Below are positions 32,856 through 61,824 of a stretch of DNA of 64,000 bases, piece after piece. The notes below the pieces were generated by a model that saw only the letters and a program-made list of their open reading frames with translations, did not search any database and was not told the origin of the DNA. The stretch is taken from NCBI GenBank assembly GCA_963695545.1, contig OY968796.1:3712001-3776000 (forward strand), written 5' to 3'. The stretch is from Terriglobia bacterium. GTDB lineage: Bacteria; Acidobacteriota; Terriglobia; Acidiferrales; UBA7541. The position numbers and the translations under genes were made by a program. Position 1 is the first letter of the stretch, and each line of letters begins with the position of its first letter.

Positions 32856-33073
32856 GTCATTGCCGAATTAATTTCCGCCCCTCGCTCGTCATCTCTTCGC
32901 GCGTTGCCCTCTCTTAAGGATGGAGGAACTTCAGCCCGTGTAAAAAAACGTCCCTACATTCGTGGCGCCTTAGCCCCCGAAGCGTTCCGCAGTACAGCGG
33001 CCCAGTACCTGTACCGGCATCCCGCGCACCCCTCCGTTCAATGTATTCGAATACAGTAAACATCATTTTCTTG

Positions 33074-33103
33074 TTGACACTCTGGTAAGCAACGTGCTAA
33101 TCT
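33074..33103 (+). promoter_or_regulatory. promoter of repeat-leader/Zn-finger cassette copy 1
   Basis: TTGACA-N18-TAATCT with extended TG; same geometry as copy 2. Confidence 0.75.
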
Positions 33104-33171
33104 CTCGCATGACACACCGGCAATCCATCCCGTTTGACGCCGGCATCCGTCCCGGTTCCTCGTTTTTCGCC

Positions 33172-33301
33172 GCAACGCTTGTGTTTTCAATCGATTCCAA
33201 ACTGCTCGTGCACACATTTCTCGCAACTCACGTATTTACATCGCATTACGAACTGCCTACCCGGGGTACCCCCCCTTATCTCACCTAGAATGGAGCCTCA
33301 C
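33172..33301 (+). repeat. conserved non-coding leader with degenerate GCAA-N12-CA(A/T)-N4-TT(A/C)C units and GGGGTACCCC palindrome
   Basis: aligns with 58872-59061 (minus strand); units at 33172 and 33223. Confidence 0.75.
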
Positions 33302-33814
33302 ATGACCAAGAAAAACGCGAACTCCCGCACCATCCTCAAGTTGTCTCGCTGCCTGCGCCGCTTCCCCAACGGCAGCCGTTGCCGTCTCCCCATCGCCGAC
33401 CAATCCTCCTACTATTGCGAGCGCCACGCCCATCTTTCACAACCCGGCGAAGCTCCTCTCGATCTCTTCCGCGAACTCAGCGCCGACGTCGATGAATTCA
33501 CGTCTGCCTCCGACGTCAATCAATTTCTCTCCAATCTTCTGCGCCTTCTCTCGCAGGATCGCATCTCCCCGCGCCGTGGCGCCGTCCTCGCCTACACCTG
33601 CAATCTCCTCCTCCACACCCTCCGCGCCATCCAGCACGAACTCGAAGCAGCCGATAGCGCCGCGAATCAAACCACACAAATCATCTTTGACATGCCCCGC
33701 CCCGACTGCGAAAGGCAAGCTCCCATGGCGGCGGAGCCCGACTCCGTCCGTCTCGCCCCGGCGAGAGACATTCGCGCGTCCGAGCCCGGAGGAAAATCGA
33801 GTCAATCAGGTTAA
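33302..33814 (+). CDS. hypothetical C-x9-C-x11-C-x2-H (putative Zn-finger) protein, paralog 1
   Basis: strongly similar to 58440..58871; GGAG RBS. Confidence 0.85.
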   Translation: MTKKNANSRTILKLSRCLRRFPNGSRCRLPIADQSSYYCERHAHLSQPGEAPLDLFRELSADVDEFTSASDVNQFLSNLLRLLSQDRISPRRGAVLAYTCNLLLHTLRAIQHELEAADSAANQTTQIIFDMPRPDCERQAPMAAEPDSVRLAPARDIRASEPGGKSSQSG

Positions 33815-58439: not shown

Positions 58440-58871
58440 TCAGGCTGGTGGCGGATCGTTCTCGCGGTCGGGACCCGGGATATCCCAGATGATTGGTAAG
58501 TCCTCTTTCTCGCCAAATTTTGGATCGCGTTCGCGCTCGATGGCGCGGAGGGTATGGAGGAGAAGATTGCAGCCGTAGATCAAGACGGCGCCGCGGCGCG
58601 GGGAGATGCGGTCCTGTGCCAGCAGGTGGACAAGTTTGGAGAGAAATTGGTTGACGTCGGAAGCGGAAGTGAATTCCTCGACGCCGGGCATGAGCTGGCG
58701 AGCGAGATCGAGCGGGGTTTCGTCGCCAGGTGGGGGGAGATGGGCGTGGCGTTTGCAGAAGAAGGATGAGTTCTTGGAGATGGGAAGGCGGCATCGGCGA
58801 CCTGTGGGGAAACGGCGCATGCAGCGAGTCAACTCATTGGCAGAGCGGGACTTCGGATTATTCTTGGTCAT
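58440..58871 (-). CDS. hypothetical C-x9-C-x11-C-x2-H (putative Zn-finger) protein, paralog 2
   Basis: shares RC.RRFP.G.RCRLPI, EFTSASDVNQFLS, QDRISPRRGAVL, CNLLLHTLRAI with 33302..33814. Confidence 0.85.
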   Translation of the reverse strand: MTKNNPKSRSANELTRCMRRFPTGRRCRLPISKNSSFFCKRHAHLPPPGDETPLDLARQLMPGVEEFTSASDVNQFLSKLVHLLAQDRISPRRGAVLIYGCNLLLHTLRAIERERDPKFGEKEDLPIIWDIPGPDRENDPPPA

Positions 58872-59061
58872 GGGCGTCTCCAGTCGAGCTGAGATAGGGG
58901 GTACACCCCCGGGTATGTTTTGCGTAAGAGATTCATAAGGCGGGACTTGCAGAAAAAGAGTGACAAAGAGTGCGTAACGGATTGAAAACAGTCGATTTGC
59001 AACTGTTTATTTTCAACGAGATGCGCACTCTTTTGCAATGCATTGAACATGAATAATTTAG
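58872..59061 (-). repeat. conserved non-coding leader with degenerate units and long imperfect inverted repeat
   Basis: units at 58924-58950, 58974-59000, 59035-59061 plus an inverted unit at 58999-59024; GGGGG/CCCCC hairpin at 58897-58910. Confidence 0.75.
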
Positions 59062-59428
59062 AGCGACGGATTTGTACGAGTGAGCGCGTTTCGGTTGAAT
59101 TGTATCGATGATATTTGGTAGGCGAGATGAGGCAGGACGAAGAGGGGTCCTTCGGCTCGTCCGCCTCTGCGGACTCGCTCAGGACTCGCATCCTTGGCCG
59201 GATGCTCGGCTTAGAGCGACGGATTTGTACGAGTGAGCGCGATTCGATTGAAATGTATCGATGATATTTGGTAGGCGAGATGAGGCAGGACGAGGAGGGG
59301 TCCTTCGGCTCGTCCGCCTCTGCGGACTCGCTCAGGACTCGCATCCTTGGCCGGATGCGCGGCTTAGAGCGACAGATTTGTACAAGCAAGCGCGATTCGA
59401 TCGAATTGTATCGATGATATTTGGTAGG
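59058..59428. repeat. 153-bp tandem repeat (two full copies plus a ~65-bp partial) containing REP-like hairpins
   Basis: near-identical copies start at 59058, 59211 and 59364. Confidence 0.95.
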
Positions 59429-59541
59429 GCGGGCACGACGGGCGGAGGCGATGTTGCCACGGCGAGCAGGCTCCGCCGCTAGATACCGAAAATTCTTCGC
59501 GACAACGAGAGGCGGGCGTATACGCTTCCAGTTCATGCGGA

Positions 59542-59571
59542 AGCATAGCACCATTGTTAACTATATGTCAA
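59542..59571 (-). promoter_or_regulatory. promoter of repeat-leader/Zn-finger cassette copy 2
   Basis: TTGACA-N18-TATGCT with extended TG, ATG 5 nt downstream. Confidence 0.75.
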
Positions 59572-59691
59572 TAATAACGCGTGGGGTATTCTGTTCGAAT
59601 GGCTGTGGAAATTATTTCGAACAGTGGAAAACGGCGGGCCGAGGGTGACAAGCAGGCCGCGCGGGGCTGCGCATTGCGCAGGCACAAGGGC

Positions 59692-59728: not shown

Positions 59729-60007
59729 ATGATCCTGCGCTTTCGTCATAAGGGGCTGGAACGGCTCTTTGCCTCGGGCGACACGCGAGGGGTGAACCCT
59801 CAACACGCGAAGCGTTTGCGTCGTCTGCTGGCGTCGCTTTCGACTGCGACGATCCCGCTGAACATGAACATTGCCGGCTATCAGCTGCATCCGCTCGCGG
59901 GCGAGCGCAAGGGCGAGTGGGCCGTCTCGGTGTCGGGCAATTGGCGGCTGGTGTTTCGCTTCGACGGTGAAAACGCGACCGATGTTGATTTGGTGGACTA
60001 CCACTAG
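59729..60007 (+). CDS. higB: HigB toxin (RelE/ParE family)
   Basis: F.HKGL, LHPLAG.R.G.W.VSVSGNWRL.F.F, VDYH end. Confidence 0.93.
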   Translation: MILRFRHKGLERLFASGDTRGVNPQHAKRLRRLLASLSTATIPLNMNIAGYQLHPLAGERKGEWAVSVSGNWRLVFRFDGENATDVDLVDYH

Positions 60008-60025
60008 CAAGAGGAGAAAAGGCAC

Positions 60026-60322
60026 ATGGATATGTACAATCCCCCGCACCCCGGTGAGATCGTTCGGGAGGACTGCCTGAAGGCGCTCGATCTGACCGTG
60101 ACCGAGGCGGCGAAGGGCTTAGGCGTCACGCGCAAGACGCTCTCGTCGATTCTCAACGGGCGCTCCGGCGTCACGGCCGAAATGGCGCTGCGGCTGTCGA
60201 AGGCGTTCGGGAGCACGCCGGAGCACTGGTTGCAGATGCAGCTCGCCTACGATCTGTGGCAAGCGAAGCGGCGCGCCAAGAAGCTGCGCGTCAAGCAGTT
60301 CGTCGCCACGGCGCCGGGGTAG
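60026..60322 (+). CDS. higA: HigA antitoxin (HTH)
   Basis: PPHPGEI, AAKGLGVTR.TLS, MALRL, WL.MQ..YDLW. Confidence 0.95.
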   Translation: MDMYNPPHPGEIVREDCLKALDLTVTEAAKGLGVTRKTLSSILNGRSGVTAEMALRLSKAFGSTPEHWLQMQLAYDLWQAKRRAKKLRVKQFVATAPG

Positions 60323-60561: not shown

Positions 60562-61824
60562 ATGCGAAACGTCTTCGATCAATATCGCCATCCAGAAAAC
60601 CGACTTACGCACGCGCTCGCCTCCTCGCTAGAGGCTGACCGTCGTTTGCTTCATCGATTTGTTCGGTGGGTGACGGGTCGCGCCGACAAAGTTCCTCACG
60701 ATCTGGAGATTGTGGAGCAGCAACTCCCTGGCGAAGAAGAAGTGCGGGATGAGGACGAGACCGAGCGCCGCGGCCTGCCGGATGCTTGGATTCACGATGA
60801 CGATACGTGGGCTCTCATTATAGAAAGCAAAATCCAAGCCCGTCTTACAAAGGGGCAACTTGATCGTCATCGTCGTACCGCCGAGCTTCGCGGATTCTCA
60901 GACATCAATCTTGTCGCCTTCGTTTCGCAGCGCCCACAACGACCCGTCTCCGACCGCGTGAAAATTGTCGAGTGGACGAAGCTCTATTCCTGGATGCGGG
61001 GCGAAGGGGCATCAGAATGGGCGCGTCGATTAACGGCGTACATGGAAGTGCTTGAGCGAAAGCTTGTCGAGGACGATTATCTAAAGGAGGGAACAATTAC
61101 CGTGTTTTCTGGCGTTCCTTTTGGTCGAGACTATCCCTACAACTATCATGAGGCCAGGCGACTGATACGCCTCGCTCTCAGTGAGCTGAGAGGGAGACGT
61201 GACTTGCGGCAAGACGCCTGGTTGAATCCTGGAGGCAAGGGGCGACCTGCCATTACGGGACGGGATGGTTCTTCCGTATGGGATCTCCTTCCGCTCGCAA
61301 GAGCGCAATCTGCGAAGAATTTCACGGAATATCCCCACCTGTCTCTTGGCATTAATCGAAAATATATGGACGCGGGCGTCACGATTCCGGACGGGATTCG
61401 GCGGAAATTTCGCCGTAACCTTCTCGCGGGAGGCAGGGAAGGATTCTTGGAACTGTTTGGGGAGGTCCACAACAATCTACGGAGGTCGCTCGCAGCAGTC
61501 GAAGGCGCGGCGCCGCACGCCGAAATCGTCCAGCGTCACTTTCCTTCGCGGCGTGCTGCGCCCATCATCGACGCCAAACTCCAGTTTGATCTACGGACTG
61601 CGTTCACTAGCCCCAAGGGCTGGCGAGAATCGGTTAAACAGCAGCCCGAATGGCTTGAAGCAGTCTACGAAGTGCTTTCCGGAAAGCAGTCAAATATCCA
61701 GTTTACGGTGGGCGCAGTTTTTCCGTATAAGCGATGCCGTGCCGTAAACACGCCGATGATCTTGGATCACGTCGCCCGCGTCTGGCTCGCGTGCAGACCG
61801 CTGATCAGAAAAATGTTGGAATAG
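60562..61824 (+). CDS. hypothetical protein with N-terminal PD-(D/E)XK nuclease-like domain
   Basis: EN.LT N-terminus, LPDAWI...LIIESK motif; lower-GC codon usage. Confidence 0.7.
   Translation: MRNVFDQYRHPENRLTHALASSLEADRRLLHRFVRWVTGRADKVPHDLEIVEQQLPGEEEVRDEDETERRGLPDAWIHDDDTWALIIESKIQARLTKGQLDRHRRTAELRGFSDINLVAFVSQRPQRPVSDRVKIVEWTKLYSWMRGEGASEWARRLTAYMEVLERKLVEDDYLKEGTITVFSGVPFGRDYPYNYHEARRLIRLALSELRGRRDLRQDAWLNPGGKGRPAITGRDGSSVWDLLPLARAQSAKNFTEYPHLSLGINRKYMDAGVTIPDGIRRKFRRNLLAGGREGFLELFGEVHNNLRRSLAAVEGAAPHAEIVQRHFPSRRAAPIIDAKLQFDLRTAFTSPKGWRESVKQQPEWLEAVYEVLSGKQSNIQFTVGAVFPYKRCRAVNTPMILDHVARVWLACRPLIRKMLE

Follow-up and report, generated by a model that had tools for sequence, protein, structure and literature searches.

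The window examined here, a 64,000-nucleotide stretch of an acidobacterial genome (G000; one contig, 4.16 Mb), holds two copies of a compact cassette in which a predicted promoter and a repeat-bearing leader precede the gene for a small CCCH zinc-finger-like protein. Copy 1, on the plus strand, begins with a palindromic, operator-like site (TATTCGAATA; 33044..33053) upstream of the -35 box of a predicted sigma-70-type promoter (33074..33103; TTGACA at 33074-33079, N18, and the extended -10 TG.TAATCT, with TAATCT at 33098-33103). Five bases separate the -10 box from the ATG at 33109, where a leaderless ORF of 59 aa starts (33109..33288), which crosses the repeat module and encodes a peptide without conservation. 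The module (33170..33257) is composed of palindromic units at ~50-bp spacing—candidate protein-binding or pac-like sites—and is followed by a terminal G-run palindrome (TACCCGGGGTACCCCCCC; 33258..33275) that forms the conserved 3′ end of all copies. The stretch TATCTCA.CT.GA.TGGAG lies between this palindrome and the start of the CCCH gene (33302..33814), whose 170-aa product, a zinc-finger-like protein with three helices and a candidate stand-in small terminase, carries a terminase-like tail, QIIFDMPRPD (33677..33706).

Copy 2 lies on the minus strand and has two TTCGAA palindromes, 22 bases apart, on either side of TTTCCACAG (59594..59621), and a predicted promoter (59542..59571) comprising TTGACA (59571-59566), N18 and TG.TATGCT (TATGCT at 59547-59542), again with five bases between the -10 box and an ATG (59536). 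Its leaderless ORF (58868..59536; 222 aa) is open across the module, and its stop overlaps the CCCH start (ATGA). An internal tandem duplication (59058..59428; 95% identity, period 153 bp) keeps the frame and holds a hairpin that we take to be REP-like. The repeat module (58916..59049) combines the inverted words AAAAGAGTGCGCA / CGCACTCTTT with phased units and leads into the terminal G-run palindrome (TACCCGGGGGTGTACCCCC; 58897..58915) and a CCCH gene (58440..58871), the 143-aa product of which is likewise a candidate stand-in small terminase with a terminase-like tail (PIIWDIPGPDRE; 58461..58496). The two CCCH proteins are 61% identical (E 8e-52), and both have C-x9-C-x11-C-x2-H together with a FTSASDVNQFLS..QDRISPRRGAVL block. 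A HigB/HigA-like toxin-antitoxin pair (59729-60322; labelled by ORF reading) diverges from copy 2, and pairs of a similar kind stand beside several other elements. A 420-aa protein encoded at 60562-61824 gave a weak PD-(D/E)XK_4 match (E 6e-4), under the cut-off.

An initial annotation of the window had described this promoter, leader and protein layout in two copies, and we recovered it base for base; its suggestion of a multi-copy module proved to understate the numbers. Profile searches of G000 returned 107 promoter modules, 91 full modules of the kind seen in most copies (type A) and a second kind built of 39-bp tandem units (type B), each with 0 matches in the reversed genome. Merging yielded 115 clusters, of which 86 combine a promoter with A and 19 a promoter with B, and 5 have A, 3 have B and 2 have a promoter only. 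As two of the three with B alone are halves separated by an IS, we count 113 copies of the leader family in 4.16 Mb, all intergenic, the 115 clusters having no overlap with genes called by a simple gene caller. A shorter terminal profile added one match only, another IS-split half. The CCCH gene is present in only four of the 113 elements, each time directly after an element. Leader and protein had been regarded as one cassette; the leader is indeed common to most CCCH loci, but with 113 leaders to four genes the pairing is not obligate. The ~109 protein-less copies, their even spacing and the link to terminase tails set out below lie beyond the earlier two-copy view.

All elements follow one order: TTCGAA palindrome(s), which in most copies sit 20, 23 or 27 bases ahead of the -35 box, then TTGAC, an extended -10, a start codon ~5 bases on (ATG in 64/100, GTG in 36/100), the units and the G-run, with 0.23-0.74 kb from promoter to G-run. 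The most similar copies are ~87% identical over their full length. The gene downstream is on the same strand for 83 of the 115 clusters and convergent for 32, and we saw no bias of the clusters towards a strand (57 plus, 58 minus) or replichore (53/115 co-oriented). IS1595-family insertions are found in the repeat module (G000:C1:247703, 343585 and 3686320; L059; L315): three of five copies in G000 lie inside type-B elements and the other two at similar GGACTT sites, and such insertions are also present in two other genomes.

Gaps between G000 elements average 36.8 kb (median 34.8 kb, mode 30-40 kb) with a coefficient of variation (CV) of 0.56, whereas random intergenic placement gave 0.97-0.98 and reached 0.56 in 0/5000 simulations across four nulls. 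G015, a closed genome from another genus, has the same architecture (51 pattern matches against 2 in the control, at 44 loci); its spacing CV of 0.77 comes from an incomplete census and was not significant (1099/20,000 simulations).

The leader ORF is open to the G-run in 87 of the 100 elements scored, out of 105 promoter + module clusters: 71/84 of type A and 16/16 of type B, compared with 10/84 and 19/84 (type A) and 0/16 (type B) in the control frames. The variable region taken alone is open in 82/91, against 62/91 and 30/91 in the other frames, the last figure being depressed by the ATGA start. As already remarked in the initial annotation, the two window copies read the conserved block in different frames, and the same holds across the family: of the open ORFs, 27 read the conserved type-A word in frame 1 and 35 in frame 2. 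Translation therefore appears to be under selection and the peptide not, which rules out a conserved type-A leader peptide and agrees with the nucleotide-level conservation proposed earlier. In type-B leaders the single frame that is always used is the sole open one.

Frequent unit spacings are 39, 50/51, 61, 82, 101/102 and 111/112 bp. These six classes, picked by frequency, share a helical phase at 10.5 bp (R 0.90; null P about 0.003), while all 17 values including singletons give an R of only 0.45. Since the unit spacings keep helical phase, they point to double-stranded DNA sites on one helix face.

The CCCH protein has 2,121 relatives among 50%-identity representatives, and the source labels of close homologs read Candidatus Acidiferrales or Acidiferrum. 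Matches occur in 19/41 related genomes, with no more than 14 per genome; this and the other three tallies given below for the 41 genomes (14/41, 15/41 and 16/41) count in genomes marked unpublished (G007, G013), on which nothing else here depends. C17, C27, C39 and H42 are invariant in an alignment of 42 sequences. Pfam, PHROG and NCBIfam contain no family for it, only scattered weak matches in 1-2 of the 42 members, in keeping with the earlier remark that the system is undescribed; the ESM Atlas returned unnamed acidobacterial clusters and DUF5763 at 0.84, which we treat as a lead only. The structure model (pLDDT 71.5) comprises a finger region, helices at 56-60, 70-85 and 91-115 and an extended tail. 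Fold searches found generic helical bundles only (best Z 6.7, rmsd 2.7, 67 aligned), Avd-like bundles among them (Z 5.7-6.7) but not above background. None of 8000 candidates was a longer fused form, which is weak evidence, and neither CCCH genes nor the type-B repeat pattern was found in viral contigs.

Neighbours of CCCH genes are unrelated host genes. Upstream of the family, where the initial annotation had proposed to look for the leader, a unit pattern was present in 18 of 28 loci examined (4/32 were excluded for a contig end), the pattern having been written after seeing examples and without a shuffled control; several of the ten misses are truncated or show an element by eye. A second CCCH class, found after type-B repeats, has a different C-terminal helix (WE..I..AL-like) and no terminase tail (G000:C1:524853-525254; also in G015, G008 and G018); a profile search of the genome and of the cluster loci gave no partner for this tail-less C-terminus.

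A first sign of a terminase link was a weak CCCH match (E 0.003) in a 92-aa gene of a virion-gene cluster on the minus strand (G000:C1:3384000-3417500; loci L103 and L104), upstream of which is a possible regulator gene. The cluster encodes the large terminase TerL (PHROG E 5e-41), a major capsid protein, a virion structural protein, a lysozyme and the 92-aa protein, besides genes that by size and order alone we take to be portal, nozzle and adaptor genes. Its capsid gene is single-copy in 14/41 genomes, across genera and at 55-92% identity; the TerL family is strongly present in 15/41. Gene order is broadly kept, dN/dS is 0.09-0.25 and no integrase was found within 50 kb; replication genes were sought in the cluster solely by reading its ORF list. 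Being single-copy, conserved, under purifying selection and free of a nearby integrase, though patchily distributed, the cluster resembles gene transfer agents (GTAs), and we infer a domesticated, GTA-like element. The cluster may already be listed as a prophage in the supplements of PMC5900883, whose accessible text describes prophage clusters common to several acidobacteria and does not call them GTAs.

In 69/69 loci with TerL and a homolog of the 92-aa gene, the homolog shares the strand of TerL and ends <1 kb upstream of it (43 distinct sequences; many of the contigs are duplicates); in G000 and G003 the gene lies downstream of TerL instead. Position and architecture make it a candidate for the cluster's small terminase (TerS). 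Its model shows helices and a C-terminal tail, with no folded N-terminal domain, and no family or fold matched at Z 5 or E 0.001; weak rows include DUF5681 proteins (ESM Atlas 0.92). Neither CCCH genes nor element-like DNA occurred in 171 cluster loci. In G000 an element is found on the cluster's strand, 6 kb upstream of it, and G004 has a similar one at 8 kb upstream. Between the capsid and portal-like genes of G000 there is an IS3-like element, and the adaptor-like gene (L103:8936-9661) has an in-frame stop private to G000 and absent from 36 distinct relatives; because of these two lesions the G000 cluster may be decaying. A conserved read-through stop in that gene was ruled out, as G000 alone of 37 sequences has the stop. 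The TerL of two genomes, G001 (G001:C5:517918-519496) and G023 (G023:C1:412601-414037), is divided between reading frames, through decay or assembly error.

The likeness between the two protein families is confined to the C-terminus. Three of the four G000 CCCH proteins end in IIWD(I/M)PxP, and the consensus tail of the 92-aa family is PPRIIWDIPRP. A CCCH tail-only profile run against 47,100 six-frame ORF segments ranked these three CCCH proteins and the 92-aa gene as its top four, the latter at 24.6 bits (E 3.4e-5) and the next segment at 11.5 bits; the reverse profile search placed CCCH tails 2nd, 6th and 8th, without significance. The tail pattern is found in 98/187 CCCH-family proteins versus 25/2,928 control proteins. 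Seven tailed CCCH proteins come from genomes in which a TerS was recovered; six matched the TerS of their own genome best and the seventh that of a congener. Own-genome tracking holds in three genomes; in G020, for instance, the CCCH protein and the TerS candidate read IEYQFVSNVPRPDY and IEYQLVSNVPRPHY, and one G000 pair differs mainly at silent sites. The stretch in common is no longer than 16-17 residues; the helical cores fail to align. In trees of the CCCH core, one of which dropped 7/36 rows by filter and the other none, the tailed proteins of G000 and G003 form one clade; the tailed pair of G020 has no firm place (88/46), for which reason an independent gain of the tail is unsupported.

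The tail is by no means general. It was found in 13 of 36 CCCH proteins examined, the other 23, among them the fourth G000 copy, having another C-terminus, and in 0/8 CCCH proteins of G015, despite a cluster and 44 element loci there. Complex prediction of TerL with the tail scored 0.26 and 0.00, the mark being 0.32 and the controls not folded, and we give it no weight either way. Cluster TerL is present in 7/19 genomes with a CCCH match and 8/22 without, that is, with no positive co-occurrence. G018 (100% complete, 90 contigs) has 14 CCCH matches, several of them tailed, and 24 promoter matches; in G018 and G022, both with tailed CCCH proteins, our queries gave no match to TerL or capsid.

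Resembling as it does the docking tail of a DNA-packaging protein, the CCCH tail suggests that the 113 cassettes serve as points at which the loading of host DNA into virus-like particles begins. In the reading we favour, for and against which we find the scales evenly poised, the CCCH protein acts as a stand-in small terminase, bringing TerL to the repeats, and the elements are packaging start sites. The cassette would then be a minimal device for redirecting packaging, made up of a promoter, phased DNA repeats, a G-run and the gene for a stand-in small terminase. The GTA-like cluster's own TerS would contribute no folded DNA-binding domain; the CCCH protein would oligomerise by its helices, bind the phased repeats through its zinc finger and a basic DRISPRR patch, and dock TerL with its tail, whereupon TerL would begin headful packaging at or near the G-run. 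Because TerL would start there, the ~109 gene-less copies could act in trans as packaging start sites tiling the chromosome. Transcription and translation through the repeats might keep the site open or allow escape from Rho, which would explain why it is the frame, not the peptide, that counts. TerL of related incoming phages could be served by this tail as well. A more far-reaching version, possible but one we would sooner doubt than adopt, is an undescribed acidobacterial GTA with programmed cargo, combining a sequence-blind terminase, plug-in zinc-finger adaptors and more than 100 transcription-activated sites about one headful apart.

It is not settled how gene transfer agents select the point at which packaging begins; the 113 mapped candidate sites, a candidate adaptor with 2,121 relatives and a named partner make the matter directly testable. 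Were the programmed-cargo version true, defined packaging sites would be known for a GTA for the first time, and the elements would form a new class, selfish or beneficial to the host, that spreads by directing its own transduction. Even without the terminase link there remains a repeat family with a promoter, a selected ORF independent of frame and a strongly regular spacing, of which we found no description, in a phylum that ranks among the most abundant in soil. A literature search, outside which most subscription papers fell, gave no paper on the repeat family, the CCCH family or an acidobacterial GTA.

A close parallel in working principle is the terS and pac module of SaPIs. In the available text of PMC6687093, an element-encoded TerS of SaPI/PICI acts with a helper TerL so that packaging begins at a site on the element itself, and scattered pseudo-pac sites move host DNA in island-mediated generalized transduction. 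Unlike these islands, the elements described here span 0.3-1.3 kb and have no integrase, excisionase, primase or att sites; their flanks are host genes, and the integrase, att sites and replication module that define PICIs are missing. They are 113 conserved, promoter-bearing, evenly spaced sites instead of chance look-alikes, and the helper role appears to fall to a resident, conserved cluster. Nor are the CCCH genes placed immediately upstream of terL within a virion cluster, as TerS genes are. TerS proteins are ordered as a DNA-binding domain at the N-terminus, oligomerisation helices and a C-terminal TerL-binding segment in the excerpt of PMC11841831, and the modelled CCCH protein matches that order in architecture, with an N-terminal binding domain, helices and a C-terminal tail. 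GTA TerS proteins without a DNA-binding domain are described in parts of PMC6854486 and PMC11841831, where no defined GTA packaging start sites are given; one of them is the RcGTA TerS, gp1, the C-terminus of which binds TerL (PMC6854486, likewise in part). The cluster's 92-aa protein is like gp1 in its predicted helices, C-terminal tail and lack of a folded N-terminal domain, whereas the CCCH protein has an additional zinc-finger-like domain and is encoded far from the cluster. In Vibrio cholerae, PLE encodes the small proteins Gpi, GpsA and GpsB, which bind to TerL and either redirect packaging or block it (10.1101/2024.04.22.590561, as far as its accessible portion goes); PLE, however, is an excising, replicating satellite, and we saw no sequence link to the CCCH protein.

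That precedent also lends itself to a defensive reading, in which mimicry by the CCCH tail binds the TerL of incoming or resident phages, so that it is blocked or wasted on 113 host sites and gene transfer is a side effect. The tail evidence fits this decoy equally well; Gpi, in the same portion of that source, is a satellite protein that both binds and blocks TerL; G018 and G022, in which we found no cluster, still have tailed proteins; and CCCH genes evolve faster than cluster genes (dN/dS about 0.45-0.52 versus 0.09-0.25). Set against this, tails follow the host's own cluster TerS in three genomes, and phased repeats and even spacing are superfluous for a pure inhibitor, which leads us to regard a decoy as rather unlikely.

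Even spacing and helical phase would also be expected of sites that organise or regulate the chromosome, as domain boundaries or inserted promoters bound at regular intervals by a host protein or the CCCH protein, the tail being a relic. Promoter and open frame are kept throughout the copies, and the downstream gene is usually on the same strand (83/115), though in 32/115 the element faces a convergent gene. Such a role leaves the lineage-matched tails unexplained, the sites differ among congeners, and copy number varies widely, with promoter-pattern counts of 76, 52, 36, 18, 15 and 6 within the genus; we hold it to be improbable. Across the 41 genomes, any promoter-pattern match was found in 16/41, and the seven richest have 76, 52, 36, 24, 18, 15 and 14 (controls 0-2).

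The variation extends to the window itself. An orthologous element without a CCCH gene occupies the copy-1 site in G003, so gene-less and complete copies can occupy the same site; no element lies upstream of the reductase gene in G001, G002 and G004, and the copy-2 site is empty in G002, G003 and G004. Elements have therefore been gained or lost among congeners. Comparing orthologous loci for empty sites and target duplications, as the initial annotation had proposed, thus produced the former; the closest copies showed neither target duplication nor terminal inverted repeats, the congeners' empty sites are too diverged for junction reading, and four DNA sequencing runs of one study contained no empty-site joint. 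Presence and absence among congeners accord with the earlier idea of a DNA-site-plus-protein, non-autonomous element, as does the absence, noted then and upheld here, of a transposase or integrase adjoining copies 1 and 2 (five tyrosine-integrase matches, none adjoining).

One could accordingly imagine a non-autonomous transposon moved in trans by a REP-associated Y1 transposase or another enzyme, with target immunity producing the even spacing and the CCCH gene as cargo; as a spreading step it would be compatible with the packaging-site reading. Dispersed REP and MITE repeats are intergenic, multi-copy, variable between species and without an enzyme of their own, and the elements resemble them in all these respects. 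Empty orthologous sites, REP-like hairpins in and beside elements, and the proximity of all four Y1-like genes to an element (0.9-4.3 kb), though three of the four are paralogs of one block, speak in its favour. Yet the elements differ from REPs and MITEs in having their own promoter and operator, a selected open frame, phased units, strongly regular spacing and a cognate protein gene; apart from the ends and duplications that were looked for and not seen, the closest copies are only ~87% identical, and selection on the frame of each copy (82/91 versus 62/91 in the best control) is unexpected of passive MITEs. We see little prospect for transposition as the whole account. G000 (93.8% complete) had 0 matches to reverse transcriptase PF00078, and the promoter belongs to the copied unit, unlike what is expected of repeats mobilised by retroelements. 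The Y1-like (HUH-motif) genes, a possible mobiliser, lie at G000:C1:1199453, 1387941, 1475752 and 1478773, two of them within a block of transposase + element that has been duplicated. By eye only, we considered and then dropped Tn3-like ends, lambda or Xer core sites, an oriT nic and TIGR arrays.

The initial annotation had also entertained a small ribonucleoprotein and proposed leader covariation as a check, and here the results went the other way. Alignments of four subtypes (56, 12, 16 and 16 rows) showed no compensatory change on both sides of a stem; predicted pairs were invariant or altered on one side, save for a two-sided change in a single sequence. They do contain invariant inverted words, consensus folding energies were weak for three of the four, and Rfam matched neither window copy, with one chance match elsewhere. 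Although CCCH fingers often bind RNA, the promoter consensus is strong and the invariant inverted word pair could form a stem, a multi-copy structured RNA bound by the CCCH protein is very improbable given these negative tests, the Rfam result, the DNA helical-phase spacing and the translation of the region.

As a control, the elements were compared with the lexA promoter, which has an ATTCG direct repeat, unlike the TTCGAA palindrome of the elements. The acidobacterial LexA box sought for comparison was not found in the literature searched. The direct repeat in the lexA promoter (ATTCGCC-N4-ATTCGCC; L083:1430-1480) is a candidate LexA box for the lineage, and similar sites occur at about two dozen intergenic places.
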